Below are positions 19,630 through 63,719 of a stretch of 64,000 nucleotides of DNA, one piece after another. A model generated the notes under the pieces. It was given only the letters and a program-made list of their open reading frames with translations, was not told where the DNA came from and ran no database searches. The position numbers were made by a program, and so were the translations under genes. Source of the DNA: Rhina ancylostomus (lineage: Eukaryota); contig JARFYF010000029.1 in the NCBI GenBank assembly GCA_030265395.1, positions 13,980,943 to 14,044,942 of the forward strand. Reading direction: 5' to 3'. How positions within the stretch are numbered: the first letter of the stretch is position 1; each line of letters begins with the position of its first letter.

Positions 19630-20210
19630 GCAGCAGCGGGAGGTTCACCGCATCCTGTTCTGCGGGCGGCGCTGCTGCGGGAGGGGGGCCCCGCCGGGTC
19701 CGGTTCCTGGAGCCGCAGATCGCAGTGAGAGGCAATGGCCACCACACCGGTGAGGCCCTCGGGCATCCAGCAGACGAGCAGGATGAGGAAGGACGAATCG
19801 TTCCTGGGGAAGCTGGGAGGGACGCTGGCGAGAAAGAAGAAGGCCCGAGAAGGTGAGTTGTGCGGGGAGCCGCTCTGCCCCGCCGCCGGCTGAGGGGGGG
19901 GGGGTGTGGGGGTGGGGGTGGGCTCAACCTCCTGCCTCCCTCCGTCCTCCTGCACCTTTTTCGGGGAGTCCGCAGGGCAGAAGCGGCCGGGATGTCACCC
20001 CTGTGCGTGGAGCCCTGAACGAGGGCTCANNNNNNNNNNNNNNNNNNNNNNNNNNNNNNNNNNNNNNNNNNNNNNNNNNNNNNNNNNNNNNNNNNNNNNN
20101 NNNNNNNNNNNNNNNNNNNNNNNNNNNNNGGGGAGTCCGCAGGGCAGACGCGGCCGGGATGTCACCCCGGTGCGTGGAGCCCTGAACGAGGGCTCACTGC
20201 CTCACTGAGG
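19630..20210. promoter_or_regulatory. CpG island over the PARVB promoter and exon 1
   Basis: Abrupt GC- and CpG-rich block in CpG-poor DNA, overlapping the first coding exon, with GC-box-like motifs. Confidence 0.8.
19735..19852 (+). CDS. PARVB: PARVB exon 1 ([39 protein letters not shown])
   Basis: gcaATGg Kozak context, AAG|gtgagt donor, phase 1. Confidence 0.94.
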
Positions 20211-35200: not shown

Positions 35201-38200
35201 ACCAAAGAACCAACATAACCAAAATGGATGTAAATCGTCCTTGATATAGATGAAGAGGAAGAAGACTAATGCAAAGCTGTATATATTTACATTGCCAGTA
35301 CTTCATGATCTAGACTGCTACAGATAGTTTTCTTAGAACTAATGCTCTAATTATATCTAAAGGGCAGCAGAGCTATAGAGCATGGAAAACAAAATTATAC
35401 CTAAGCAGATGCTGATTATCCAGTTTGATATGAATGTAGTTTCGGAACTGTAACTACCTGGAATGAATCCTTTGTCCCTTTTTGGCGCAACATAAGAGAT
35501 TTCCATTTTGGATATTTAATTCTGTTTCAAAGATTCAAATTCTTCTTATAAAAAATGTTCAGAAATTGCGGTTGTGTTAATTTTAGTTTAGGTTTGGCAA
35601 TGTTTAACTTTTGTTTAATAAAGCAAGTTGAACTTTTCAGTCATGTTGCTGATAAATTTGGACTTTTCCATTTGTTGTAGAAAATGCATATTCCCATTTA
35701 TCAGCTCAACACCCTCCCCGTCCACAAGAAAACACGATCAAAGTAGAATGAGAATCATTTGGTACTTGAGGTAGTGCGCAGTAAACTATTCTCTAAATTA
35801 GGATTAATTTCCACATTAAGTGCCATCAAATATACCAACAAAATCCTACAAAATACAATTAAAGCATATCAACACAGCATTGTAAACAGACATTAACTGC
35901 AATCACTACATATACTAGAGGAGTCTGTTGGTTTTAGAAATGATGAATAGTGCAAAATTATCGAACCATATTCCATCAATAATTATTTTTCCATTCAGAA
36001 TATCTTTATTTCATCTATTAAACCCATTTAAACAATGTGCCCTGTATCTGCAAATTGCTGCTTCACTATTCATTCCATAGGGGTAAAAGGAAATGAGAAG
36101 GCCAGGAAGAAGCCTCTGTTTGAGATTGCTATTATAGGATTACTTAGAAAACCATTAATCAGTGCATGTGTCTCATCCTACTACCTTACTGCTTTCATTC
36201 CTGTCAAAATGACAGAAACGACATGTGGTGCCTGGTTACGCATCTCATGCTTGGCCCAGTTGTACCTCTTCCCCCTTGCAGCTGGGCTGGCACGCTACAT
36301 TGCTCAGTTGTGTGACAGTCTGTTAATGAAAACATGGCAGGGCTCTTGTGTGGAACAAAAAAGAGTAGAAGCAAAGGTAAGTCTGCAACTTCAGTTTATT
36401 TATTGGTTGTGATTCTGTGCCTGGAAGTGAAATAACAAATAAAAGAAAGACGTTATTGCTGTTAATGGGTAAAAGCACTCTGATTCTGGTGCATTTCTAC
36501 CTTTTGCACTATAGCTAAGGTTGAGACTTCATATTCATGTCATTAGATGCTATAGTTAGCAGCCACAGTTGTAATTTCTTGATAAAATTCCAGCTAAAGT
36601 TTTAAGTAAAACGAGCCTAATAAATTTCAATTATCAACATCACTGCTTTAATCATCTCGTATGTATTACATATTTGATCCCTGAAGTTGTGATTGAGTTT
36701 CAAAAAAATTAAGTGATAAGCTGGGCCATACCATTAAATCACAGATTTTTTAAAAAACTTTAAATCCATCAACATTGCATGTATTATTCTGATGCTTAAT
36801 GATATCCTGAGGGAAGAAGAGTCTACTCATAGAATTAAATCTCTAGGACTAGACAGGTTGTTCAGTAATAATAGCCTTTGTCCAATTTAACTATGAAAAC
36901 AGAAAAGGCTGTCAACACACAGCAGGTTCGGCAGCATCTGTGGAGAGAGGAATTGAGTTAACTTTTCATCAAAGTAAGAAACTGACAAGACAAGGATATT
37001 TGAAGTTGCAGAGGGGATGGGTGGAGAAAATAAAGGGAATGTATGTATTGGGGCAAAAACTGAGAGAAGCCAGGTGATAGAACTGCTGTTGGCACCATCT
37101 AAAGAAGAGTAGTGAAGTCTTGCTAATTATAGCTGGTCTTTTTCACTGAGCAGTAAATAAAGGGAGTTAAATAGAGACTGGAGAAAAAAAAACAATGTTG
37201 GAACTGTGCAATGCATTATTGCTTCACCTGAAAGGACTGTTTGGGTCCCTGAAATAAAAGAAAATGCTGGAAAATTCGGCGCGTCATGTGGCATCTCTGG
37301 AAAAAGAAAGGTAGGTTTCATTTTAGAGGTTGATGACCTTGCATCAGAGCTGGCCACTTCTGATCCAGCAGGAATTCTCTACCCTGGTGTTTTGTGGAAG
37401 TGAGGTCATTGGAGGTATTTGAGGAGGAGTTGGATACAGTTTTGAAAGATAGCTAAGTGAGGCCTATGTCGAGCTGGCACAGGAGAGGAGACAAGGCAGA
37501 TCGACCATGATGATGTAGAGTGCTGAGACAGGCTTGGAGTACTTCTGCTCCCACTTTGTTCTAATGAAAGAAACAAAATTCAGCCATTTTCTGTGTTCGG
37601 CATTTTTGTAGACTTTCTACTGACTTTAGCAATTCATTTCTTCAAATCATTGAGGGGGGAATATTTCATGGTGAGAAACTAGCTAAGGTGTGTGGTATGC
37701 CCTCACAGAAATATTTGCCTGCAAAGGTTTTATGGTCTATTTTTTGCACAAACACGAGAGTCATCAATGACTGTGAATTTCATAAAATAAGCCAGATACT
37801 ATAATGAATTTACAGGAGGCAAATAGATAATTAAACAAAATATCAGTTTGTAGTTAGAGCTAAAGTAATTGTAGGGCAATAGTGGGAGCTAAGTATTCTT
37901 TTGCACAATTATTTTTAAAATAACTCCTCATTAATACCTACTCTTTATAACTATTGTATTGTCTGAGTTAATTGACTGCTGGAAACATTTCATCTCAATG
38001 GACACTTTTTTACTTCCTCCTCTTTAGTGAGTGACCTACAAGAAGAAGGTAAAAATGCCATCAATGCTCCACTGTCTCCAACACCCACAGACATTCATCC
38101 AGAGGACACCATGCTAGGTATTTAAGAAAACATTTTCCTTAATCTTTTTATATTTTCACTGTTTACAATTAAAGTTCTTGAAGAAATTTCTTATGTCTGA

Positions 38201-41200
38201 TGGGCTTCAATAGCTTTCATCCTTATAATGCTAGTGTCATTTGCGTTAACATTTATGATAACTTAAAAGCTTAGGTTTCTTTCACATTGTTGCCTTCTCT
38301 TTGGCTCTGAGCATTAATCCATAATGAAAACTGTAACTACTGACTTACCATTTGTCTGACGAACACACCTGCCTCTTTTACTTGCTACTGCTTATTTATA
38401 TTCAACTGACTTCAATTATAGAGGAGAATGAAGAACGCACTATGATTGAGCCATATTCCAAGGAAGAACCAAAGTTTAAAGAACTAGTAAAGGTAAAGTA
38501 CCAGAATGAAATGTGATCTTCAATAAGTTACTATCAAACACTGCATTGTCTTGTTTTTACTTTATTATACAACCAATTCTGTAATGACTTGCAAAGCTAA
38601 AATACGTGACAAAATGTACAGCACTGCAAATTCTGTGAGGATTTTCTGTAATATGGCATGATGATTTCTCTTCACGTGACTGACTTCATCCATATGTTGT
38701 TACAAAAGGTTATCATTGTCATTTGATAGACTATCAGTTCTAATCATCAGTATCATCAGCTTATCCTGATCAATCATTAAATTTCTTGTTTATATTAGAA
38801 AATTGGTAATGAATGTAAACTACATCTGGAAAAGGCCATGTCACATCACATTGTTTAAATTTTTGAGTTTTGCAGATGCGGTTTAAGGAAGTTGTATACT
38901 TAAATTTTCAAATTATATACCTCTGTACAATTTGTGGATAGATCTTGGGCTGGGATTTTTTTTAGGCAGAGAGTAATTGATGGTTTTGGAGGCGTGAATT
39001 ATCAATGGGGATCGATCACTACGGGAGTCCAGTGAAATTGATTTTGTAATTGTTTTCTTCAGTCTTTACCAGTAATTTGAATGAAAGCATCAAGAAGTTT
39101 GCAGTTGTCATAAAATGGTGATGGAGCAATCAATCTTGATGAGAGTAAGAAACCACCATGGTGGAGTGTATGTGCAAGGCTTCAAAGTAATGTTTAAATG
39201 GGAGAGATGCATAGAAGTGAAACTGCACATAGTTACTGGTCCACAATCAGTAATTTGATGCTGTAATGAATGCCAACAAATATTAGGGTTTATTTCTAAG
39301 TTGATCCCATGTATGACAAAAATAATGACGTGGTCGTTCTTTTATCAAGAATGCTGTTGTTACCTTTGGTAACTTCACGGAAGTATGATTATAGTAATGC
39401 TAGGAAGAGCTCAAGGTAAGGCTGCCTAGCTGAGGCAGAGTTTAAAAGCCCTTAATTGTGACAGGCTGACAGTGTTTCTGTTTATTAACTTGTATGTTGT
39501 TTAATTTATGAAATAATTATTTAAACACTCTTTAGGTTCTAATCGACTGGATTAATGATGTCCTTGTTGAAGAAAGAATAATAGTGAAGTCACTTGAAGA
39601 AGATCTATATGATGGTCAGGTTCTGCAGAAATTGCTAGGTGAGAACAGTAACCTTAACACCTTAGTGCCTGAAGAGATGGGCATTAAATTAACTGAGCCT
39701 GTTGGTTTTTGGTCAGTTTACTTCTTGCTTATCATCTTGATCTTCCCTTTAAATGATTTTCTTTCCAGATAGGCAATAATTAGCTGTTTGACACTCCTGC
39801 ACAATATACATCATAGCCTATCTTTGTATATTGAAGATGCAACCTGAATTTCTATTTCTAAGCATGTGTTGTCGAGTTTTTCTAGCCTTTCACCACAGTA
39901 AACCGTATAACTGTTCAGGTTTTTACTGAAGATTTCCTGAGGTAATTGTCCAATTTCATAAGATCATAGCAACATAGCACCGATGAAGACCATTTAACCA
40001 GATATACCTGTGCTGGTTCATAAAGACTAATTATTCCTGGATCCATGTTTCTTCATTTTTCTGCAACTTTAAGTTCCTCCATATTGAAGTAGCTGCCAAC
40101 TCCTTTTTAAAACTTAGTTGTGAAAACCACCATTTCTTGAGAATAATTATTTCTCTGAGAAGGGAAGCAGTTTGCATCTGTGTCATTTGCCATTGATTTT
40201 ACATCCATTACCTATGTTATTAATCCGTGTTAGAGGGAATGGTTCTTCTCTACTCCATCTGAACTTCATGAAAAATACAAGATCACCTCTTGATCTTCAC
40301 CATTCCAAAGAAAACAGTCTTGCCTTTTCCTGAGATCTGAAATCCTTTGTCCTTGATCAACTCCTGGTAAATTTGGATCTTTGTATCCTTTCCAGGTTCC
40401 TGAAGTGTGATGACAAGAATTGTTTAACTGAAATGAATTGATTAACTTGTAAATGGATGAGGTGGACCAAAAGGGTTAGGACAATATGATTCTGTGATAA
40501 AATGTTAACCTTTGAAGACAGAATATAAGTATATATAAACCCAAGTAATCTTTGTGATTTGTTCATCATTTTATCATCTTGACCTGGGTAAGTGGATCAA
40601 CAGCTCTGGCTCAGCTGGACTTTTCAGATTTCAACACTTCTTAAGTGTACTGTCCTTCCATTTATATTTCTTTTCACCCCTATCCCCTCCTCCACAAAAC
40701 ACATGATACNNNNNNNNNNGACAGACTTCTCTTCACTGTACTATCATGCATCATCATCATTACAGCAATCTTCATTGGTGTCAATAGCATTGCCAAATTT
40801 TATGTTATTGGTAAATTTCATAATCTTGGTGTAATGAGTATTATACAAATTGTACAGATCTAAATGGGTAATGAAACACTGCCCTTGGTGAACATAAGTT
40901 TAAACCAATTCCCAATTTTAAAAATATCCATCCTCTATCACCTTTGGATACCATCCCTGAAACAGTTCTGAATCCACATCAATACTTTTCCCTTAACTCC
41001 ACAGACTTCAATTAATCTTTTTTGACATTTCCTCATTCTCTAAATACTGAATACCTGGTAGCATCTTTTCACTGTTTCAGATGGTGATCATAACTGCACT
41101 GTTCCAGTGGAATAAGGTCAAATGCAGCATTTTGACTTCTTTAATATTTTATAATTGCAAATACATGGATTACTTGACCATATTCTTGAAAGGTTTTTGA

Positions 41201-44200
41201 GGTGGCTACCCCCGATCCAAAACTTAAGGCACCATTTCTGAGTGATAGGTAAGAAATGGCTCTAAAACTTGGTTAAACGTTAATAACAGATCATTTCCAG
41301 AAGCCTTTAAGGGCTNNNNNNNNNNNNNNNNNNNNNNNNNNNNNNNNNNNNNNNNNNNNNNNNNNNNNNNNNNNNNNNNNNNNNNNNNNNNNNNNNNNNN
41401 NNNNNNNNNNNNNNNNNNNNNNNNNNNNNNNNNNNNNNNNNNNNNNNNNNNNNNNNNNNNNNNNNNNNNNNNNNNNNNNNNNNNNNNNNNNNNNNNNNNN
41501 NNNNNNNNNNNNNNNNNNNNNNNNNNNNNNNNNNNNNNNNNNNNNNNNNNNNNNNNNNNNNNNNNNNNNNNNNNNNNNNNNNNNNNNNNNNNNNNNNNNN
41601 NNNNNNNNNNNNNNNNNNNNNNNNNNNNNNNNNNNNNNNNNNNNNNNNNNNNNNNNNNNNNNNNNNNNNNNNNNNNNNNNNNNNNNNNNNNNNNNNNNNN
41701 NNNNNNNNNNNNNNNNNNNNNNNNNNNNNNNNNNNNNNNNNNNNNNNNNNNNNNNNNNNNNNNNNNNNNNNNNNNNNNNNNNNNNNNNNNNNNNNNNNNN
41801 NNNNNNNNNNNNNNNNNNNNNNNNNNNNNNNNNNNNNNNNNNNNNNNNNNNNNNNNNNNNNNNNNNNNNNNNNNNNNNNNNNNNNNNNNNNNNNNNNNNN
41901 NNNNNNNNNNNNNNNNNNNNNNNNNNNNNNNNNNNNNNNNNNNNNNNNNNNNNNNNNNNNNNNNNNNNNNNNNNNNNNNNNNNNNNNNNNNNNNNNNNNN
42001 NNNNNNNNNNNNNNNNNNNNNNNNNNNNNNNNNNNNNNNNNNNNNNNNNNNNNNNNNNNNNNNNNNNNNNNNNNNNNNNNNNNNNNNNNNNNNNNNNNNN
42101 NNNNNNNNNNNNNNNNNNNNNNNNNNNNNNNNNNNNNNNNNNNNNNNNNNNNNNNNNNNNNNNNNNNNNNNNNNNNNNNNNNNNNNNNNNNNNNNNNNNN
42201 NNNNNNNNNNNNNNNNNNNNNNNNNNNNNNNNNNNNNNNNNNNNNNNNNNNNNNNNNNNNNNNNNNNNNNNNNNNNNNNAATTTATTTTCGGGTATTCCG
42301 AAGCTTTACTTTTATTTCTTTCTTCATTTATGCAGAGAAACTTGCGAGTCGTAAACTGAATGTTGCTGAAGTGACACAGTCTGAAATAGGGCAGAAACAG
42401 AAACTGCAGACAGTGTTGGAATCTGTAAACAATCTACTTCGACCTCAAGGATGGGCAATCAAATGGAGTGTTGATTGTGAGTATTAAGTTGCTAAATTTG
42501 GCTTTGCTGTCTGTACACAACTTGTAAACTCTTGGTCACTGAGGTAGTTTTGGACTAGTGCAAATTTTACACTTTGGCTTGTTTGTTTTGTTTTAGGGTG
42601 GATGAACTTTGAGATTAAAATGGAATACTGTACATTTTATATTTCTTGCATATTGTAGCTTAAGTTGGATTTCAGTGAAAACAAAAGGGAAATTGTAAAT
42701 ATCATTTATGCTCACAAAGTACTGTCCCTTATAACAATTAGTGGTATTTTGATGTATTGAAATAAGCAGGAGGAACATTATTAAATGCAAAATTGACATT
42801 AGTTTTTCAAAGTCATTGTATAATTTGGCCATTAGCATTATAGTTACATCTTTGTAGTAAGTCAATTAGAAGTATTGTTCCATTTTAAGGAGAAACTTCT
42901 ATTTTTACTTTTACTGAGGTTTCCTGATGAATGTGTGTAAATATTTCATTTTAAGATGCTATATATGCTATGACTATATGCAGTTTAGAATGATCACAAT
43001 AAGGTATGTACTAATCAGAAGAAGTTTCAAAACATTATGGATATATAGATTATAGTCATGTTCACTCTCAGTTACTGTTGTCATTCTTCAAATCATAATG
43101 ATCCATTCCTTTGGTGTAGCAGGTGTGAACTTGCTGTGAGGCCTCTGCCAGTTTTGCTTCTTAGTTTACAGACTGACCAAACATCAGGAGATATCTGATC
43201 TACATGCACAATCTGTTTTCCTGTTTCTTAGTGGCAAGTTTCTGATCTCTGTTTAGCACAGCTTCCTGAGAATTGAAAATGATCTTTGTACGATTCTTAC
43301 AGAATGTGCTAGTGCATCTTTTAGCCTTGCCATACCATGTAGTTAATTTGTTGCAGAACATTAACTGTCCATTGTTTTAGGGTTTCAGCAAGTAACATTT
43401 GCATTTGCTTACACAAGGGATTGGTAGCGTTGACTTGAAGAAAATATTTCTATTTATAATGAAAGTCAGAACAAGGGACATATAAATAAGATGGTCAGCA
43501 ATAACTTCAAGAAGAAAATTTCTTTACCCTAAGAGTGATAGGAATGTAGAATGCCCTACCACAAGGAGCATTAAGTAGCTTCATAGGGTAGATTAATTAG
43601 AGTGGATTGGAGCAGCATTGGTAGCATACACAATTGAGCCAAGTGACCCATTTCTCTTCCATAACAATGTGGCACAGTTAAAATAATTGAGTGGGAGCTC
43701 TTGAAAATTGTAAGTTTGGTGATATTTTAATAAATTTATCTTTTTTTTTTAGCAATCCACACAAAAAAAACAGTGGCTATTCTTCACCTTCTTGTGGCTT
43801 TGGCAATGCATTTTCGAGCCCCTGTTAGATTGCCAGAACATGTCTCCGTTCAGTTGGTGGTTGTGCGGGTAAGTGAATCTTCAACTATGAGAAATTATTA
43901 GTTAAGTATAGATTCTATGTTATTTGGGTGCTTGATTTGACTTAGAAATTTTTAGTATCAAACAGTTGTGAAGAAAAGAGAAGAAACTGCTTCTCAAAAC
44001 CTTTTGAAAACAATGCTGGCTTCTTCACTCGGTATTTAAGGGATGAAAATTTTACGGCAACTTATGAGCATATAATAAGAAAAATAAGCATGCAAGTAGC
44101 TCTTTGAAAATTGTTCCCAAGGTAAAACTAAGGGAAGTGTGGTTAGCTTTATTCAGTGGAGACCTGAATTTTGCAACATCTGTTTGATTCCTGCCATGCA

Positions 44201-47200
44201 TCTCACTTGCATGAAAAACTGAAAGAATTTTGTGCCAACTTTCTAACCAGAAAGCTAAATGTACTTTGCTAACAGCCTTTTTGCTAAGGGGGAGCCTTGA
44301 AACTACCCCACCTAAATCAACTTACTAAATTCATATCACATCTACTATTGTATCCTCATTTCCACTCGCCTAGCTTTGATGCATCTTGGAAAAAGAAGTA
44401 AATATTTTATCGCCTAGTGTGTCTTTAATTCACCTTCACTGCTTCAGAGCTTTAGTTCTTTTTGCATCTATTTCATTATGATCTACTGCAGCCTTCCTTC
44501 CACCTTACACTTCCATTGATTTTTACAGTAATTCCCCCAGTTATTTTTCCCAGATCAGACCGTCAAAGGCTTCAGAGGGCGGGCAGACAATCACGCTGAA
44601 GCAGACCATTTTTATTTACAGTCTTCTGGTCAGGTAGTAAGCAATCTGATAACAATGAATGAGTTGGTTGTTCCTGTGGGAAATGTCGTTTAAGGAATTG
44701 GACTCTACTTAGCATTCAGGACTAGGAATGAAGCATTAGAAATTCCTTTAGATCAAANNNNNNNNNNNNNNNNNNNNNNNNNNNNNNNNNNNNNNNNNNN
44801 NNNNNNNNNNNNNNNNNNNNNNNNNNNNNNNNNATTTTTGTACTCTGTTAAACTCTAGTAAGTAGAAATTCAGGGAATGTTTACATGTTTAATACAAATG
44901 GCTCTCAAATAGAGGGTTAATAGAAACTGATAAATGGTTTTTGAAAACGTAGGTAATATAAAAGTTAGTCTCTCTCCTCTCTCTTTTTCTCTCTCCCCTT
45001 ATTTTCCTGTCCTTGCCCTTTCCCGCGCTCTCTTTAGTACACTCTCCTCACACACTTTCTCTCTTGTGTGTTGTCTCTCACATTTTGTACCATTCTCCCC
45101 CTCACCTTTGCTCATTTTCTCTATTGCTTTCTTGCTCACTTGAGCTCTGAGTTGATAAAGATATCATTAATAATTTCAATGAACAGCCAACCAAAGATCT
45201 CGGTGTAGGTGTGTCATCACCATACTTGTATCCTGGAGCCAAAGGCTTCAAAATTTTTGGAGAGTGTGGGGGGAAAAAAGAATCAAACCAAATAAGCAGT
45301 GGTGAATTTGACATGCCAACAAGTTCAAGTTAAGATGAACGGGACAACAGAAACTGAGTATCAGTACTATTTACGGACCAATTCCATCATCTGTTCTCAC
45401 TTTGCACGTTTTACAGGATTTTACCCCCACAAAGCCACTCACTAATGTAAATGGGAATGGTTTGGTGAAAAAAGAAGCAAGCTGATTGTTCAAAGTTTTA
45501 TGAAGGGCTAATATATCTGAGGCATTTTTAAATATCCAAAGTTGAGCTTCATGAAAGTAAGCGTGGAGAACTGGCAGAAATGCTCTTAGTAGATTCATCT
45601 TATCAAGATTTGAGTTAGTTGGCTAACATCGTATCAGGATAAGGTTAGAACATTAGTTCCCAGAATAGGATAGTAATTCCTGGGTTTATTTATACTGTAG
45701 CGACTTACCTTTCACGAACCGGCTCCCACAATCGCAAGCGTCGTCGGAGGCCTCGATACAAGATGGCTCGGGGCACTCCTCCTTCATTGGGCTAGGGGAG
45801 CCCACGTGTGGGAAGGTCATGTGACCCGCGCGCGAAGTCAGCACGGGAACTGTGATTATTAAGGGGGCAGCACACCCTGGTCGTTCATTCAACTCTTTGA
45901 CTTCAAGCAAATGTCTTGTGTCTTTATTCAGCGCAGCTAGCCGCTACAATACAAAGTCCTCTGGCAGGGGTTAATTCCAATCAGTGGCTCCCACTTCTTT
46001 TTCTGCAATTTCTTTATTCTAAATTTTTAGCTGTTTGTCAGCATGCAGTTCTCACCGGTATTTTGCTTCATATCATCAAGCAAATCAAACTTGTTAGGTT
46101 AAATGTGGCTTTTCCCAATATTCCCTGCAGAAGTTTTCTTACTTAATTTCAGAAAGTGGTAGTTGCTGCTGAGGCAGTCATTTATTGCCTATCATTTTAC
46201 TGTTTCTGAGAAGTTGGAGAAGAGCTGATGNNNNNNNNNNNNNNNNNNNNNNNNNNNNNNNNNNNNNNNNNNNNNNNNNNNNNNNNNNNNNNNNNNNNNN
46301 NNNNNNNNNNNNNNNNNNNNNNNNNNNNNNGAGAAGAGCTGATGACTTGAGCCACTGCAATTCTTTTGGTAAAGATGTTCCCACAATGTTTCCAGAATTT
46401 GGAGACAATGACGGCAGGATGATGTGATTTAAGGGGTCCTATAGGTGGAAGCATTCATAGGAACTTGTTGCCTGTGTTCTCTTTGATGGAGATGTTCATG
46501 GGTTTTGGAGGTACTGTTTGGGAGAGCTGTAGTGAGTTACCGCAGTACCATTTTATAGATGTTACAAACTGTGATCATGATATGCTGATGGTAGTGAGAA
46601 TGAACATTTAGTTGTTGGATAATGACCAAGAATAGGTTCTTTGGCTTGATTTTCTCCTGCCCTTGCCTTCAAACCTAGTATGCTAAGGCTAATGGTAGTT
46701 CTCCTAATCCCTCACCCAGTCCCTTGGCTGTGATTATCCAATTTAGTATGGACTGAATTTGATAATTCATTTGTTAGCACACCTGAAAGATCTCTTAGTT
46801 AGAGGGGAAACTGGAGACGTGTAGCACCACTCAATATTTTTAATTTACATTGGAAAATATCTTTTCACCATTTGTAGTGATGTTGTTTAATTGTGTTGTC
46901 CTCTTACGTAAAATTAAAACCCAAGCCAAACCCAACTGACAACAGTCAACTCCAACCTGACCCAAGCCTAAGGACTCAATAGTTTTGATGTACTTGACCT
47001 GATCTAAACTTGACACATATAGTTGGGTCCTTTCTGGCTTGGGTTAGGTACTCTGGCTCTAAACTGAAACTACATTGAGAAATAGAACTTTTTTTTTGTG
47101 CTATCTGCTCCCTCCTGGATACTTGCAGATGGTCAGCCCTATCACAGCCCATAGTACTGACACTTCATACATTTATTTATAACGAACTAGTCTTTTCTGA

Positions 47201-50200
47201 CTCAAGAGCAAGGACAAGATGTTTTTCATTCCTGGCCTGAATTTGACATAGTCATGACCCATCAGGCTCAAGCTGTGAAACCAGACTCCAATTGTTTTCA
47301 TTCCATAATTATCCATCTGCACATAGGAAACTTCGTTGATTATATTATAGACATATGGTGCAAATCTAAATAGTTAAGTTGCTTTTTCTTCTGATCAGTT
47401 GAATTTTTGTATGATTGCAGAAGAGAGAAGGAATACTTCAAACGTCACATGTTACAGAGGAATTTACCAGCACTACAGAGTAAGTTGGAATCTGATTCCA
47501 TTTATTTCAAATATGAGTCAAATATACTGTACAGTTGAAGAGAAATACACCGATTTGCGCTATTTCCAGACGTTTTTGAAACAGGTTTATTTTGTAATAT
47601 TAGTGAAAACTTCCTAGGCCTGAATAAGTCATATTTTGGAATGTTTGGTTTTCTGTTTCACTTCTAATGAATTTATCATTTCCAGAAAATAGCCCACTCT
47701 GTGTAACCCAAATGTGATCTAAAACAAAAAGTAAAAAGACCATAAGACGTAGAAGCAGAATTAGGCAATTCGGCCCATGGAGTCTGCTCCACCATTCGAT
47801 CACGGCTGATTTATTTTTCCCTCTCAACACCATTCTCCCGCCTTCTCCCCTTATCCTTTGATGCCCTCACTAATCAAGAACCTATTCATCTCCGCTTTTT
47901 AAAGTGACTTGGCCTCCACAGCCGTCTGTGGCAATGAATTCCCAGATTCACCACCCTCTGGCTAAAGGAATTCCTCACATCTGTTCTAAAGGGATGTCCT
48001 TCTATCCTGAAGCTGTGTCCTCTGGTCCTAGACTCTCCCACCACTGGAAACGTCCTCTCCATGTCCACCCTCTCCAGGCCTTTCAATATTCAGTAGGTTT
48101 CATTGCAAATCCACCCCCCCACCCCCCATTCTTCTAGTCTCAGGAAGTTACAAGCCCAGAGCCATCAAACTCTCCCCATGCACTAACTTTCTTATAATCA
48201 TTATTGTAAACCTTCTCTGGACCCTCTCCAATGCCAGCACATCTTTCCTTAGATATGAGGTCCAAAACTGCTCACAGTACTCCAAATGTGGTCTGACCAA
48301 TGCCTTATAAAGCCTGGACTTTATACATTACATCCTTGCTTTTATATTCTAGTTTAACATTCTAACATTGCATTTGCCTTCCTTACTACTGACTCAACCT
48401 TGGTATTGGTTTATTATTGNNNNNNNNNNNNNNNNNNNNNNNNNNNNNNNNNNNNNNNNNNNNNNNNNNNNNNNNNNNNNNNNNNNNNNNNNNNNNNNNN
48501 NNNNNNNNNNNNNNNNNNNNNNNNNNNNNNNNNNNNNNNNNNNNNNNNNNNNNNNNNNNNNNNNNNNNNNNNNNNNNNNNNNNNNNNNNNNNNNNNNNNN
48601 NNNNNNNNNNNNNNNNNNNNNNNNNNNNNNNNNNNNNNNNNNNNNNNNNNNNNNNNNNNNNNNNNNNNNNNNNNNNNNNNNNNNNNNNNNATAACAGTAC
48701 AGAGTAAAGTGTCACAGCTACAGAGAAAGTGCAGTGCAATAATGTGCAAGGTCACAACAAGGTAGATCGTGAGGTCATAGCCCATCTCATTGTAAAAGGA
48801 ACTGTTCAATAGTCTTACCACAGTGGGGTAGAAGCTGTCCCTAAGTCTGGTGGTACGTGCCCTCAGGCACCTGTATCTTCTACCCGACGGAAGAGGAGAG
48901 AAGAGAGAATGTCCCACGTCAGTGGGGTCTTTGATTATGCTGGCTGTTTCACCAAGACAATGAGAGGTAAAGACAGAGTACAAGAAGGGGAGGCTGCTGT
49001 CCGTGATGCACTGGAGCCTGCAAGTTAACCTTTAGGAAATCCTGCACTAGGACTCCCAAGTCCCTTTGCACCTCCGATTTCTAAATTCACTCCCTGTTTG
49101 GAAAATATTCTATGCCTTTATTCCTTCCACCAAAGTGCATGACCATACACCTTCCCTATGCTGCATTCCATCTGCCACTTCACCATTTTCCCAACCTGTC
49201 CAAGTTCTTCTGCAGACTTCCTGTTCCTCAAAACTACCTGCCCCTCCACCCATCTTTATATCATCTGCAAACTTGGCCACAAAGCCTTCAATTCCATCAT
49301 TCCAGATCATTAACATATAATGTGAAAAGTAGCAGACCCAACATCAAGCCCTGCGGAACACCACCAGTCACTGCAGCCAATTAGAAAAGGCCCCCTTGAT
49401 TCCCACTTTGCCTTCTGCCAGTCAACCAATCTTTTATCCATGCTATAGTACCTTTCCTGTAATACCATGGACTCCTATCTTGTTTAGCAACCTCAGGTGC
49501 GGCACCTTGTCAAAGGCCTTCTGAAAATCCAAGTAAACAACATCCACTGACTCTCCTTTGTCTATCCTGCCTGTTACCTCCTCAAAGAATTCCAACAGAT
49601 TTGTCAGGCAAGATTTCCCCTTAAGGAAACTGTGCTGACTTCAGCCTTTTTATCATGAGCTTCAAAGTACCCTGAAACCTCATCCTTAATAATTGACTCT
49701 TAACATCTTACTGAAGTCAGGCTAACTGGCCTATGATCCTGCATCTTCCAAATTACTCCCAGAAACTCCTGCCATTGCGGCTCTACCATCATCCCTGCTG
49801 GGGTGCCCTTCCAATCAACTTTGGCCAGCTCCTCTCTCATGCCTCTGTAGTTACCTTTACTCAACTGTAATACAGATACATCCAATTTTAGCTCTCCCTC
49901 TCAAACTGCAGGGTGAATTTTATCATACTACACTGTCTCCTAAGGGCTCCTTTACCTTAAGCTCGCTAATCAAATCTGGATCATTGCACAACACCAAATC
50001 CAGAATTGCTTTTTCCCCAGTAGGCTCGACCACAGACTGCTCTAAAAAGACATCTTGTAGGCATTCTGCAAATTCCTTCTCTTGGGATCCAGTACCAACC
50101 TGCTTTTTCCAAGCTACCTGCATATTGAAATCCTCCATGACCACTGTAACATTGCCCTTTTTACATGCCTTTTCTATCTCCTGTTGTAATTTGTACCCCG

Positions 50201-53200
50201 CATCCTGGCCACTATTCAGAGGCCTGCATACAACTCCCATCAGGGTCGTTTTAACCTTGCAGTTTCTCAACTCTACCCACAAGGATTCTACATCTTCTGA
50301 TCCTATGTCACTTCTTGCTAAGGATTTGATTTCATTTTTTACTAACAGAGCCAGCACCCCACCCCCACCCACTAATCTGGGAGGCAACATGCTTTCAGTG
50401 TGTAAGCTGCTGAAATATATATTGTAAGTAACAAACGTCATATACCTTGTCCATAAGACATTTAAAATTCCCTTGCCCAGACTCTGTGTGGTTTCTTCCA
50501 GCGAGAATCCCAGCTGGTTCTCAGATGTGACCAGGGCTTGTTAGGAATTGAAATAATTACACTTGATGCCTTTGCAGCAAGAAAATATGCCATCAGTCTG
50601 GCTGCATTCTGGAAGAGATGGTGACAGCTGTATTGTAAAACTTCACCATTAGATTTTTGCTAAAATCAGAATTCACTTTCCTCCCGGGTTTAATTTTCAC
50701 AGGATAAACACTTGCGGTAACTCTGGTGCACTATCATTTGTCTCACACCCATCCACTTGATTTAACCATGTCTTTTAAAAAAAGATCAAATTATTTGTAA
50801 GAAAGATGCTTACCATTACTATAAAATCCATTTCTGATTTGCTAGGCCACGTATGCAATTCTTTCATTTTGAGAATAAACTGATCTAACCTCCTTTGCTT
50901 AATACTGCACCATATAGCAAAAAATGATAAATGGTTCCAATTGTAAAGGATTATATAAAAAAAAATTTATCAGTTTTCTGTGTGGTGCAGTATTAAGCAA
51001 ATTCTAAGGTATTTCAAAAGTTGGCCTTACTTTTGCTAATGAAAGCTGTTAAAACAGTTGGTTTGTTGTGTTTAATTCTTAATTGTTTTGTTGTATTTTT
51101 TATTGCAGGATGATGATGGGGAGGTTTGGTAAGTAAATAGTTAACAACCAATTATTGTTGTACAATAATTTTAAAAAATGTATAGTTCTTATTTAGTTTT
51201 TTTTAGTACATAATGATGTTGTACCTTTTGGTAAGACTTTCTTTTCGTATATTGTTGAAGTTTAACATGGGGTGTACAACACCACCCAAATCAAAGGAGT
51301 ATATGAGGAATCCTTTAGTTTGATGGGTGGAATTCCTTAAATCATTTTGCATACCTTGCTGTTGGAGCAAGCCTGACCAAACTGGTATCATGATCCTAGT
51401 TTAAACAGATATAGATTATGCATAAAAATGCATCATAAACTGAATGCAAGCTAGACCACAATGATGTCTGGGGATTTTGCCCTTTGGCCCTTTCCAATAT
51501 GTATGAAATTTCACAGGAAACTCTGGTAATCTGACATCCAGTTTTTCATCCATGAGACCATAAGACATTGGAGCAGAATTGGGAAATTCAGTCCATTGAT
51601 TCTGCTCTGCCATTTGATCATGGCTGATTTATTTATCCCTCTCAACTCCTCCTGCCTTCTCCCCAGAAATTTTGGTGCCCTTACTAATCAAGAACCCATC
51701 AAACTCTGCTAATATACCCGATGATTTGGTTGCCATAGCCGTTATTCTACAGATTCACCACCCTCTGGCTAAAAATAATTTCTCCTCATCCCTGTTCTAA
51801 AGGGATGTCCTTCTATTCTGTGCCCTCTGGTCCTATACTCTCCCACTACTGGAAACATTCTATCCAGGCCTTTCATTATTTGGTAGATTTCAATGAGATT
51901 TCCCCCCCCCATCTTTCTAGACTCCGGGGAGTACAGGCCCAGAGCCATTAAACGCTCCTCGTACATTAACCCTGTCATTCCAGGGGTCATTCTTGTAAGC
52001 CTCCTATGGACCCTTTCCAATGCCAGCACATCTTTCCTTAGTTAGAGGGCCAAAAACTGCTCTCAATACTCCAAATGTGGTCTAACCAATGCTTTATAAA
52101 GCCTCAGCATTACATTCTTGCTTTTATATTCTAGTCCTCTCGAACCGAATGCTAACGTTGCATTTGCCTTCCTTACTACTGACTCAATCTGCAAGTTAAC
52201 TTTTTGGGAATCCTGCACTGGGACTCCCAAGACCCTTTGCACCTCTGATGTTTGAATTTGCTCCCCATTTAAAAATTCGTATATGCCTTTATTCCTTCTA
52301 CCAAAGTGCATGACCAAACATTTCCCCATGCTGTATTCCATCTGCCACTTCTTTGCCCGTTCTCCCAACCTGTCCAAGTCCTTCTGCAGACTCCCTGCTT
52401 CCTCAACATTACCTGCCCCTCCACCTATTTTTGTATCATCCGCAATCTTGGCCACAAAGCCATCAATTCCGTCCTGAGAGTTCACTGGCTAACTTATTAG
52501 TTTTAAGTGTGAGCGTGGGGTTTAGACCATGGTGTGCAGCTGGAGCCAGGGTTGGGATTCCAAACACCAGAGGCCAGGAAAGTGGGTAGGTTTGCTGCCG
52601 GACCCAATGTCCGGAGTGCTAGAATATTTCCTGTTCCCTTTAAATTCACTGGAAAATGTATCATACTACTGTATAATTTATATTTTTGTTTAGAAGGTGA
52701 GCTGAAGGATTGGGGTTTTATTAGGAGTCACAACCAATAGACTTGAAAATCTCCTAGATCTGCACCACCAAAGTCCTAAGGGTGCTGGGTTATCCGAGTT
52801 TTGCTGTAACTTTTTTTTAACATTCAAGAATTTTTATACATTTTTAAATTTCCTTTTACCATTTCAAATCTGCTTAATAAAGGAACTCTCTCCTTATAAT
52901 AGAGGGGAAATGCAATGTGTATTGGTCAGGGCGACCTCTATTTCCCACACTGCTGAATTTGTTGACCTCCTTTGGTATTGGTATTGGTTTATTATTGTCA
53001 CTTGTACCGAGGTACAGTGAAAAGTTTGTCTTACAAACCGATCATGCAGGTCAATTCATTACACAGTGCAGTTACATTGAGCTAGTACAGAGTGCATTGA
53101 TGTAGTACAGGTAAAAAAAACAATAANNNNNNNNNNNNNNNNNNNNNNNNNNNNNNNNNNNNNNNNNNNNNNNNNNNNNNNNNNNNNNNNNNNNNNNNNN

Positions 53201-56200
53201 NNNNNNNNNNNNNNNNNNNNNNNNNNCTCATGCTCATTCCCACATTTCATTGTATTACCACTGGTGGCCTTGCCATCAGCTCCTGCGATCGCCAGGATTC
53301 CCTCCTCGAACACTGGCTCGCGGCAAAGGCAACCAAAAGCCCATGTGACAGGTCCTCAGGTGCTGCACAGATCTCTGACGTGGCAGCAGAGGTTAGGTGG
53401 AGAGTGGCATCACTGGACAAGGAGCAGCTGTACTAACACAGAACAAGACAGCACAGGCCCTTCGGCCCACCACATCTGTGCCAACACCATGACAATCTGA
53501 CTAATCCCACCTGCCTGCACACAGTCCATATCCCTCCAGTCCCTGTCTGCTCATGGGGCTGGCAAAAACCCCTGAAACGTTGCTATTGTATCAGTGGGGA
53601 TACGGTCAGTGACACGGGGCGCTGGGGGAGAGGGGTCACTGAGGGACGGTGCGAAGGAGGGGGATTAACGTCAGTGGGAATACGGTCAGTGATGGTGCTG
53701 GGTTCACAGACCCAGGAATGTTCTCAATTTGTTTTGCAGCATCTGCAACTGGTTGGAGGGTAGGAGAGACAATATTCTGGAAGTTCAGTGGCCTCCAGTG
53801 GTCTGTCAGGTAAATGGAATCATTTGTGTACAAGTCTGAGTGCTTGGACAGGCAAAGGCTGCTCTTGGGGTCGATATACAACATATATCAATAAATCTCG
53901 GGACTGGTGCACAGTGCGTGACTCCAGATCAATTGCTGAATGCTGAACGCTGAACAAATTAGTAGAACAACATCAGCAGAAAGTGTAAATATTCAAAGTT
54001 GTGAGAAGCAAATGGCAGAGTTTGAGGAGGGTCTGGAACTGAAATACCTGGATATTGAGTGGGGAGTGTGGTAGAACAGAGAGAACTGGGGATATGGTAC
54101 ATCCCTAAGAGTGGTAACACAGAAGGTGTTCAGCACACTTTGCTTCATCGGTCGGGGCACTGACTACAGGAGTTGGGACGTCTTGTTGTTGCCATGCAAG
54201 GCATTGGTTAGACCACGTGGAGTACAGCAGGCAGTTCTGTTTGCTGCACTATAGCAAGGATGTGATTCAGCATGAGAGGGTGCGGAGGAGGGCTGGAGTT
54301 CTAAGGAGAGACTGGGTAGGCTGCGGCTGTCTCCCTGGAGTCAGAGGCTGAGGGGTGACCTTACAGAGGTATATGACATTGATATTGGTTTATTACTGTC
54401 ACTGTGAAAAACTTGTCCTGCACACAGATCGTACAGATCAATTCATTACACGGTGCACTGAGGTAGTACAGGGTAAAACAAGAACAGAATTCCCAGTGCG
54501 ACAGTGGTTAACACGAGGGGACGTGATTTTAAGGTGATTGGAGGAAGGTATAAGGGAGATGTCAGGGGTAAGTTTTTACACAGAGAGTGGTGGGTGTGTG
54601 GAACGCACTGCCGGCAGAGGTTGTGGGGGCAGATACATTAGGGACATTTAAGAGACTTTTAGATAAACACATGAATGATAGAGAAATAGAGGGCTATGTG
54701 GGAGGGAAGGGTTAGATAGATCTGAGAGCAGGATAAAATGTCAGCACAACATTGTGGGCGGAAGGGCCTGTACTCTGCTGTAGTGTTCTGTGTTCTATGT
54801 TAATACAGGGCAAAGTGTCACAGCTACAGGGAAATGCAGTGCAGGTAGACAATAAGATGCAAAGTCATAACAAGGTAGGTTGTGAGGTCAAGAGTCCATC
54901 TCATCATACAAGGGAACCATTCAATAGTCTTATCACAGCAGGATAGAAGCTGTCCTTGAGCCTGGTGGTACATGCTCTTAGGCTCCTATCTTCTGCCTGA
55001 TGGGAGAGGGGAGAAGAGAGAATGACCTGGGTGGGTGGGGTCTTTGATTACATTGGCTGCTTCACCCAAGACAGTGAGGGGTAAAGACAGAGTCTGTGGA
55101 GGGGAAGGACGGTTTCCATGACACACTGGGCTGTGTCCACAACTCTCTGCAGTTTCTTGCAGTCCTGGGCAGAGCAGTTGCCGTGATACATCCAGATAGA
55201 ATGCTTTCTATGGTGCATCGGTAAAAGTTGGTGAGAGTCAAAGGGGACAAACCTGGAGCAGTTGTGATTGCCATATTTGGCCAAAGCAGCCTCTATGACC
55301 AAATGACTATTGGTGACCCCCACTGGGAACTGCAGGTACAAAGACCCGGGTGATTACAAGATCCGACCTGGTTGTGATTCTCTCTTCTTTCTTGCTTTTT
55401 GTGGCCATGCAGTTTGCCAGTATACTGAAAGATATATCTGAGTAAATACTTAGAGGCTCATTAGTACTTGTGCACACAACACCAGGCTATGAGTTGTCAA
55501 CTCAAAAACAAAAGGGAGAAGATAGTCGTCATATTGATTTAAAGTTCTTCATGGCTGCCCATCGAGAGCAATTTTCTTTACCTTATTACAGCACAGGGAT
55601 ATGTTTTCCTTGTTATTTTGACATTTCGTGGGTACTTTAGAGACAACTGAGACAATGTTTATGGAAGTATATTTTCAGTCTTTATAAATGTAATTTTGTA
55701 TTTTACATAACATGGAAGGAGACCATTTAGCCGGTCAAGTCTATGGCAACTCAAGGAGAAATCCAATCTATTCCATTCCCCTCTTATTTCACAATAACCA
55801 GTTCTCATTCTTAACCTACCCCCAAATCTCCACCCATCGACACTATTTACAGTGGCCATTTAACCTATTAACCAGCACATCTATGGGACGTGAGAGGAAA
55901 CCAGAGCACATGGGGGAAATACATGCACCGCAGGGCGAACGTGTAAAGTCTATGGGCAGTGTTCGAGGTTAGGATCAAAAATGCATCCTCTTTACCCCCA
56001 ACACCCTTATTTGTGAAGGCAAAATAGTAGAGGAGGTTTTTTAAAGTTTCAGCTCTCTGATNNNNNNNNNNACAAGAACCTTTAATTAAAAAAGCACACT
56101 TGAACAAGGTACCAGAGGGTGCCATTCTGGATCTACACCCCACTGAGGAACTTGCATTAGGTGTGTGAGTTATTGTGAAAATATCTGAATTGCATTCTCA

Positions 56201-59200
56201 TTTGTTATTCCAGAACGGGATGCTTTTGATACACTGTTTGACCATGCACCTGATAAACTCAGTGTTGTTAAGAAGGTAAATTTCAAATCAAGTTTCGAAA
56301 TGTTATTTCTGAAATAACTTTTTTCAACAACAACAATATGAATAAAATGTAATGATGCATGATTTCTGAAATTAAAACATATCACTCAAGGTCAAATATA
56401 TTATGCACAGAAGGGCACTATTAAATGTGGTGCCAGTACTGGAGGTATTCAACTGGCACCAGCCACTATTAATCCTTCTAACTTTTCATTTCTGCATCAT
56501 GTTATATTTTTCCTTCTCAAATACCTGCCTCATTCCCTTTTTGCAGCTGATTGCTCGTGCTTCATGTTCTGAGAGCCCATAGTGTGGATAGTAATGTTAG
56601 TACTGTTCTTTGTTTTTGTACTAATCTTTGCTTCCTTACCAATTCACTACTCCTTAATAATTTTTAACATTTTTGAGTTGATCACAAATAAATAGTTAAG
56701 CTGTGAGATCTAAACAAAAACATCTGTGTCGCTGATCCAGTATCAAAGCCACCTACTTTACATAATTTACTGGAAGCAAATTATTACATTATAAGATTTT
56801 TGTGATTGTTATCTTACATTTAGCCTAATAATGTTAATTTTTATTAGAAGCAAAACCTGGTGCTATTGAGTTATTCTACAGCTTATTATACTGCTTGCCC
56901 AATTTCCTTACCATTGATAGGTACGTCGTCACTAACGATGAGCAATGACTTGATGCACATTGAGTATTCTTTGCTGTTTCAGTGTTGTATCTCTGTCCAT
57001 GGCTCATTTTCTGCCCTTTTGCTCTCACTCCCTCTTCTCTGTTCCCACTTTCCACACTACCAACCTCCTGCATTCAACAGATCATCCTCTGTAATTTCTG
57101 ATACCTCCTGTATGATACTGATATTAGCATATCTTTTCTGCTTTCATTGTTTCAAAGATGCTATTCCCTTTGGTTCACTTCCTCCAATCCACACTCCCCT
57201 TCGTCCTGCACCTTCTCCTGCAACCATATAAATGCAGTGCCTTCTCATTGCCAGGAGCCGACCCCTGCTTTTGACCTCCTGTTCTAACAAAGCTGAACGT
57301 GAGCTTGAGGAACATCACCACTTATTCTGACCAGGCACATTGCAACCTTCTGGACCGAACACTGATTTCACAACTTCAGATTATTGCCCATTCTAGCATT
57401 GTACCACACATTTTCAGTGTTCTACTATGTATGGTTGTTATTCCTTCTGGTAATATCAGATTGCACTCGTCTTCTCCTATTTACACCTCTCCAGAGACCT
57501 GGTTCCATCATCACCTTTGTCATTTAATCTGTCCAGTTCCCTACTCTGTTGCACATCATCTCTTTTGCTCTCTCAGCAACTTCCCCTGCTCGACCCCGAC
57601 CCCACCCCTACCACTTTCTATGCAACTTAAAACAAGTTTTACTTCTATCTTTTCCCAGTTCTGATGAAAGGGCATCAATTTGAAATATTAATTCTGTCTC
57701 TTTCTCCATATGTGCTTCCCAGCATTGAGTATTTCCAGAATTTTCTATTTTCTGCAAGTTATCTTGATTTAAAAATGAATAAGAGCTATGATTTTGTTTT
57801 TATTTTATTTTCCCAGTCACTTATCACCTTTGTGAATAAACATCTAAACAAACTCAACTTGGAGGTGACAGAACTGGAGACACAGGTAGAAAAGTTATTT
57901 TTCAGAAAGCTATACAAAGGAAGCAATTGATTACTTGTTAAAATATTCGGAACACCCTTACCTCTGAATTATACATAATTCCTTCAATAAAAGAAAATGT
58001 TTCTATTTATGCTTCATATCTATTTGTGCTCCAGCTTCTCAGCTGATGAATCCGTACTCCTCCACATTGAATGTTACTGGAGGAAGCACTGGAACTTGCA
58101 TGGGTGCAGAATATTCTCTTGGTGGGGAATGTCAGTATCCATCACTAAGAGTGACTTAGTTGCACCACCACAGGCTGGACAAATCCTGAAGGCCGTAAGC
58201 TGCCAGACTGGGTCTATGGCAAAGACTGAGTGAACCAACACCAGAGAGAAACCTATCTGATCTCATCCTCGGTAATCTGTCTGTGGAAGATGCGCCTGTC
58301 TGTGATAGCATTTGTAGAAGTGATCACAGCACTGTCTTAATGGAACAAAGCCCACCTTCACAATGAGGACACCCTCCATTATGTTGTGTGGCACAGATCT
58401 GGCAGCTCAAACTGGGCACATGGACCATTAACAGCAGTGGAACTGTACACTATCACAATCTATCCTGTCACATCCCTCATCATTGGCGTCAAGCCAAGGG
58501 CTCAACCCTGGTTCAATGAGGAGTGCAGAAGGACATGCAGGACCTAAAAGTGATGAAGTCCTATACGATGTAATGCAGGGCTACTGCAATGTACCATAGG
58601 GCTACATGCTCTCACAACTAACAGATCAGATCGAGGTTTGCCATCCAATGACATGTAGCTGTGAATGGTGATGGGTGGTTAAATGGCTAAAGGAAGAAAG
58701 AGGCTCCAGGAACATAGTGATTCTCAGTGATGGCAGGGCCTACCAACACGAGCGTTCACTAACACGTTCAGCCGGAAGTATTGAGTGGATAACCTATCTC
58801 AGCTTGCTCCTGAGATCCCCACCATTACTTAAACCAGTCTCCGGCAAATTTTATTTTCCTTCAAGTGATACCAAGAAATGACTGAGAAGAAATACTGCAA
58901 AAACTGAGATCAGATAACATCCAGTTATAATACTGAAGATACGTGCTAGTTGTGTCCTTAGCCTTCCAATGCAGTTATATTACTGCCTTCTACCCATGAT
59001 TGTGGAAGGCTTCATGATCTGTTCAGAAGAAGCAGGACAAATCCAATCCAGCTAATTACCACCCAGCCAGTCTACTCTCAATCAACAGCAAAGTGATAGA
59101 AATTCTCATTAACAGGTCTAGCAAGCACCACTTCATCATGAATAACCTACTCTCTGAGTATGTTTTCAATGATGAAATTTCAGTTTCACCAGGACCAGTT

Positions 59201-63182: not shown

Positions 63183-63719
63183 GTACAACAGACACAGACT
63201 TCCTGATATATGTATGGCCTGATATAATTGAGATAGAATGTATAATCTCTTCCTTTTGTAACGTTATGAAGTTTAAGCTACACATTCCTCTCCAGGTCAC
63301 TCACTATCGTGACTTGCAAATATTTCATCACTCTTTCATGCTCACCAAAGTCTCAATCCTTAAACTCATGATCCAAGAGTATTTCATCCAGAGGGACTCT
63401 GGTGATCCACGAAGGTGGCTCAGCCATTCCTCAAGTGGATTTAGGATGGTTTAAAAAAAAATTTGCCTTGCTAATGATAAATCCAGAAAAAGCTCCATTT
63501 TGAGTTGTGTGTGCAACCTGGCATTTTTAATTTGCTAATTACATCGTAGCATTACAGATTACCAGCTAGTCTGATGTAGAGTCTTCTGCAAACACCGCTC
63601 ATTCTCTGGTGAAGGAAAAAAATTTGACAATGTTGGCTTTATTCCCTGTAAAGTTTGTTTCCTGTTGAGACCATAGGAATTTAATACCACATGGCAGTAA
63701 CTTCTCAAATTCTATCTTC

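Follow-up and report, generated by a model that had tools for sequence, protein, structure and literature searches.

An alternative N-terminal exon of beta-parvin, shared from cartilaginous fish to birds, encodes a candidate membrane-anchoring peptide

Analysis of a 64,000-nucleotide stretch of DNA from Rhina ancylostomus (the window) reveals an alternative N-terminal coding exon, almost certainly real, within intron 1 of the beta-parvin gene (PARVB). It encodes a 14-residue peptide that would take the place of the 39 codons of canonical exon 1. From the conserved features of this peptide and by analogy with Cav-beta2a, we propose that it is a membrane anchor that would dock on acidic lipids through its basic residues and then undergo S-acylation at Cys6, a reading to which we assign a probability of roughly 60%.

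Results

An alternative coding exon in intron 1 of PARVB

The gene in the window encodes a two-CH-domain parvin closest to PARVB. At least 10 exons align in order, at 77-100% identity, to ray PARVB models (P0125 and P0124) in tblastn searches, and a protein search with exon 2 returned beta-parvins. All parts of the gene lie on the forward strand. The coding part of canonical exon 1 (19735..19852), the segment that would be replaced, comprises 39 codons and a G in GC-rich DNA and ends in phase 1 at a GTGAGT donor. Common exon 2 (38028..38117), which begins VSDLQEEGK, follows the acceptor tttag/TG. The shared downstream exons encoding CH1, the linker and CH2 span approximately 38422..63202 as located by tblastn, and the last PARVB exon lies just beyond the window end.

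A sequence of ~68 nt occurs at 19961-20029 and again, with 2 differences, at 20130-20200, on either side of a 100-N gap, and is probably an assembly overlap. Weaker parvin-like exons on the same strand of contig C29 (14061998-14082034), downstream of the window, are likely gamma-parvin in tandem behind PARVB. A further parvin gene, likely alpha-parvin, has its exons divided between C22 (2244457-2260409) and C17 (21335960-21340657), with two CH2 exons on C17; this division is possibly a scaffolding error. A counterpart of the alternative exon was sought in the paralogue on C22, likely PARVA, in a stretch of 49,800 bases of which 23,136 are N; exons 1-2 of the paralogue were not located in it.

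The coding part of the alternative exon (36334..36376, forward strand) consists of 14 codons and 1 base, and so ends, like exon 1, in phase 1. Its ATG stands in the context aaacATGg, its Cys6 codon occupies 36349-36351, and it is followed by a GTAAGT donor (36377..36382) whose sixth base is G instead of T in a related organism (organism B). The intron to exon 2 measures 1651 nt. Because exon 1 and the alternative exon are both in phase 1, either can join the opening TG of exon 2 in frame; for the alternative exon, G plus TG gives Val, and the protein continues Val-Ser-Asp-Leu-Gln. Translation in this frame can begin no earlier than 36334, because a stop codon lies in frame at 36313 and excludes a longer upstream frame. 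A second, out-of-frame ATG (36326..36376, forward strand) lies in the weak context ttaATGa and opens 17 codons to the donor; its frame runs into a stop at once in exon 2, whose first three bases are TGA. An ATG, an open frame and a donor whose phase matches exon 2 are all present, and the original prediction was accurate in every detail examined: the strong Kozak ATG, the 14 codons, the donor and its phase, the distance of ~1.65 kb to exon 2, and the stop awaiting the frame of the upstream ATG.

In Rhina ancylostomus this exon is likely spliced to exon 2, as it is in the gene models of annotated relatives. A RefSeq model of Mobula hypostoma, isoform X2 (XP_062914181.1; P0125), is identical at 14 of 14 residues and joins the peptide to exon 2, which supports the proposed substitution for the N terminus of exon 1. 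The same model shows that the exon is not hidden, as had been supposed, since its peptide is already annotated.

The peptide is conserved from chimaera to birds

We collected 415 beta-parvin proteins or fragments through the exon-2 search and cluster listings, and assigned them by hand to taxonomic groups from their source names. In 89 of these the protein begins, exactly or nearly so, with the motif M[AS][GAR][LF]LC and continues into exon 2. By group, the carrier proteins number 5 from cartilaginous fish (Callorhinchus, Scyliorhinus, Chiloscyllium, Mobula and Narcine), 1 from coelacanth, 13 from amphibians, 6 from squamates, 4 from turtles and 60 from birds. All 89 are automated gene models, none listed with a Logan source, and they span several annotation sources (RefSeq XP_; GenBank KAG, KAJ, CAI and OPJ; UniRef). 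The suggestion that the isoform may be annotated in other non-mammalian vertebrates therefore holds, and in these relatives the peptide is both conserved and joined to exon 2. Judged from the distribution of these models, the alternative exon is older than the split between cartilaginous and bony fish. Exon 1 is probably the older of the two starts, since the canonical exon-1 motif reaches divergent, probably invertebrate, parvins.

Conservation within the peptide is uneven. M1, L5 and C6 are each present in 89 of 89 carriers, as are Ala or Ser at position 2 and Leu or Phe at position 4. Positions 7-14 contain 3-6 Lys or Arg residues, and Asp and Glu are absent from positions 1-11 in 88 of 88 proteins. 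Positions 7-8 vary freely among GT, GA, GG, GK, RK, KR, RR and KK, a pattern that looks like selection on charge and a single Cys, and not on a folded binding epitope. Peptide length ranges from 12 to 21 residues with the frame kept. Among proteins P0008, P0137 and P0138, those of ranoid frogs have the peptide lengthened to 21 residues with Phe at position 4, and that of Narcine resembles tetrapods in carrying RK in place of the G found at position 7 in the remaining cartilaginous fish. The similarity of the Narcine model extends to the leader in front of the ATG.

Other comparisons were uninformative or negative within their scope. In an alignment with organism B, 34 of the 37 contig substitutions over 35476-36820 are listed and none falls in 36220-36381; this substitution-free stretch is not significant (chance p 0.29-0.38), and the 3 unlisted changes could fall inside it. 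A metagenome scan for the bird-type exon gave 0 matches, and the motif occurred in 0 of 147 new proteins among 50%-identity representatives.

The motif was absent from mammals in our set: 0 of 116 named proteins carry it, including 0 of the 99 with an exon-2 start (unnamed Logan rows excluded). A search with the coelacanth peptide joined to exon 2 returned no mammalian carrier among the best 120 of 223 matches; within these, all carriers ranked above most canonical forms, and canonical mammalian proteins were reached. The exon is likely lost in mammals or, alternatively, unannotated there. Loss is likely rather than established because cluster listings were partial, with large clusters sampled in part (the human cluster, for one, through 15 of its 248 members). 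The motif was likewise found in 0 of 6 proteins from ray-finned fish, an undersampled group, and in 0 of 6 from crocodilians, too few to judge.

A proposed membrane anchor

In the mechanism we propose, an alternative promoter within intron 1 would give rise to a transcript without exon 1, and ribosomes would scan past the weak ATG at 36326 to initiate at 36334 by leaky scanning. The initiator Met would then be removed and Ala2 or Ser2 probably N-acetylated. Leu4-Leu5, together with the 3-6 Lys or Arg residues, would confer weak, reversible binding to membranes containing acidic lipids, after which a zDHHC enzyme would acylate Cys6. An order of this kind has been described for SNAP25/23, in which the membrane is first contacted through basic residues close to the cysteines and palmitoylation follows (PMC5362264).

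The features of the peptide are those expected from the Cav-beta2a type of anchor, with an N-terminal Cys between hydrophobic and basic flanks and with L5 and C6 conserved in 89 of 89 carriers. An invariant Leu5-Cys6 pair followed by a variable basic cluster plausibly fits S-palmitoylation or membrane targeting, as first suggested. N-myristoylation calls for Gly at position 2, where the carriers have Ala (76 of 89) or Ser (13 of 89), so the prediction was right to set this modification aside. With a single Cys, no myristate and no transmembrane helix, the anchor would be weak unless acylated. A structure model gave pLDDT <50 for residues 1-58, in a model that is poor as a whole (mean 47, CH2 unresolved), and a search of the ESM Atlas with residues 1-30 returned no usable match.

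The N-terminal swap would leave the ILK-binding CH domains unaffected. The CH domains bind ILK (PMC8799556), and an isoform that retains both would still join ILK and PINCH. What would be exchanged for a lipid tether is the exon-1 segment, with its putative NLS, the first half of the syndecan-4 site and a PxxP/Ser-Pro region. According to a study of rat beta-parvin, the replaced segment overlaps the putative NLS and the syndecan-4 binding site, and loss of syndecan-4 lowers membrane-bound beta-parvin (PMC12447578).

A first coding exon that may be an internal cassette

The alternative exon had been described as a first exon. This stands for the first coding exon; whether it is also the first to be transcribed is uncertain, given an acceptor-like site in front of it. 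A pyrimidine tract ending in CAG (36259..36281, forward strand) places an AG at 36280-81, 52 nt before the ATG. We scored splice sites with a rough weight matrix; by this measure the site ranks 5th among the 1069 AG sites of intron 1, and the true exon-2 acceptor ranks 9th under the same scoring. Use of the site would yield an internal exon of 95 nt (36282-36376). The strength of this site suggests that the alternative exon may not be a true first exon but the first to carry coding sequence, preceded by a non-coding leader. The region is not GC-rich.

A cassette of this kind, which we rate at somewhat short of even odds and which is compatible with a membrane anchor, would also bear on a third N terminus. 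Because the first two bases of exon 2 are TG, a split start codon is created by any leader with A as its last base. Inclusion of the cassette would produce the MAGLLC isoform; were it skipped, a leader of this type would join A to TG and produce a 327-aa isoform that begins MSDLQ. Models of this 327-aa form number 44 of the 415 proteins, 14 of them mammalian, and span chimaera to primates; they are often isoform X3 beside a MAGLLC isoform X2 (Mobula, Chiloscyllium, Pleurodeles and Lissotriton). One promoter and an optional anchor exon would account for both isoforms. A pigeon model (P0214) reads CCLSFSIQ, 16 codons and MAGLLC, which fits a pyrimidine tract and CAG 48 nt before the ATG, as read from the codons of the protein model and not from pigeon DNA. 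Against the cassette, acceptor-like tracts are common, with 4 better ones in the same intron, and a pyrimidine-rich tract can also act as an initiator. Moreover, no leader exon was located: candidate A/GT donors in intron 1, the best of which are at 26294, 25224, 29473 and 25060, are weak and many.

Splicing of the 95-nt exon to exon 1 would shift the frame to a stop at the first TGA of exon 2, in which case it could act as a poison exon. As another source of the MSDLQ form we considered and rejected a donor 4 nt downstream (GTAA/GT), which is weak and is destroyed in organism B by the T-to-G change at 36382. A sigma-70 promoter scan found nothing, under a model irrelevant to vertebrate DNA.

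Other functions and origins for the peptide

The exon could be real and its peptide serve instead as a protein-binding or nuclear-import variant, in which the NLS or syndecan-4 function of the exon 1 end passes to the basic cluster, the phosphorylation/PxxP region is dropped, and Cys6 serves redox chemistry, a disulfide or partner binding in place of a lipid. Both exons end in a basic cluster directly before exon 2, and the canonical region is described as a putative NLS that binds syndecan-4 on peptide arrays (PMC12447578; PMC2792345). We consider this rather unlikely, as it leaves unexplained both the invariant Leu5-Cys6 by a free N terminus in 89 of 89 carriers and the free exchange of residues 7-8.

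As to origin, the exon might be a partial tandem duplicate of the 3' end of exon 1, in which a Gly-to-Cys change made the acylation site. The two exons share a phase, and an ungapped alignment pairs the catshark peptide with GKLGGT...RKK of exon 1 (shuffle p 0.015), with p of 0.02-0.03 for frog and newt. The remaining 5 of 8 pairs gave p of 0.10-0.53, and the alignment registers differ between pairs. With the basic block held fixed, the similarity to the 3' end of exon 1 is not significant in any of the 8 pairs (p 0.06-0.92), and we regard duplication as improbable.

The exon stands out from the background of intron 1. Its donor at 36377 ranks 2nd of 973 GT sites by the rough matrix, and among 100 simulated introns the combination of a Kozak ATG, an open frame and a comparably strong phase-1 donor came up once at a donor score threshold of 7.5 and 7 times at the looser threshold of 6. 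Real intron 1 holds one other such signal (20271-20385), with ATGs at 20271 and 20334 and a common donor at 20380, which lies within a high-copy repeat (2300 candidates); the DNA of the alternative exon is single-copy. The decoy peptide (20271-20380) matched 0 of 562 fetched proteins, and the 36334 peptide gave 84 blastp-short matches against the same 562. A chance signal or a propagated annotation artefact, for which the similar ATG and donor in that repeat speak, is hardly credible in view of a peptide kept from chimaera to birds in 34 distinct versions of 12-21 aa, with lineage-specific substitutions and length changes that preserve the frame, and of a decoy that matches no protein.

Between the alternative exon and exon 2 lie high-copy repeat fragments (36860-37480) with very high contig depth. 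The two sequence runs that align here are genomic-like contigs reading through the intron, with joints in the repeat at ~36900-37480.

Discussion

The isoform described here is almost certainly real, deeply conserved, already annotated by automated pipelines, apparently never studied and probably absent from mammals. Among the titles and abstracts returned by a search of the open literature, none dealt with a MAGLLC isoform or with parvin acylation. The closest counterparts are orthologous: XP_062914181.1 of Mobula hypostoma has the same exon, the same junction to exon 2 and all 14 peptide residues, and the isoform X2 models of chimaera, sharks, coelacanth, amphibians, reptiles and birds, all automated, contain the same exon with no difference in kind.

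Human PARVB also varies its N terminus on a constant two-CH-domain core, in the forms PARVB-l, PARVB-s, PARVB-ss and CLINT (PMC2792345). CLINT, like the isoform described here, splices an alternative 5' exon onto the same exon 2 (P0320). It differs in adding 70 unrelated residues, and the -s and -ss forms, unlike the alternative exon, derive from internal starts; none of the four forms has a Leu-Cys-basic peptide (PMC2792345).

The likeness to Cav-beta2a concerns a proposed way of working, and no homology is claimed. CACNB2 has, beyond its long first exon, a short N-terminal exon used in a mutually exclusive manner, which gives a soluble scaffold a peptide with palmitoylated cysteines that promote membrane association (PMC3972191). 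Cav-beta2a has two adjacent cysteines and proven palmitoylation, whereas the beta-parvin peptide has one Cys and its acylation is predicted (PMC3972191 for Cav-beta2a).

This type of switch is well known, and the exon itself is already in automated annotation. PSD-95/SAP97 alpha, GRIP1b and PDE10A2 have palmitoylated N-terminal isoforms in which an alternative 5' exon turns a lipid anchor on; these proteins are unrelated to parvin, mostly neuronal, and retained in mammals. Parvins, for their part, are described as reaching adhesions via protein partners: ILK, paxillin, alpha-actinin and syndecan-4. A broader picture, which we offer tentatively and regard as unlikely in its entirety, is that jawed vertebrates possess a lipid-anchored beta-parvin that would tether the ILK-PINCH-parvin complex directly to the membrane, its anchor being encoded by a cassette exon under an intronic promoter, and that in mammals the anchor exon disappeared whereas the promoter and its truncated MSDLQ product were kept. 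On this view, a lipid-anchored beta-parvin would have escaped any study in mouse or human, since the exon would be missing there. In chick and Xenopus studies of adhesion and muscle, antibodies or morpholinos directed at exon 1 would miss the alternative isoform. A self-anchoring isoform in sharks, frogs, reptiles and birds, if confirmed, would provide a direct membrane tether for the ILK-PINCH-parvin complex and would exemplify a conserved isoform that has been lost in a particular lineage.
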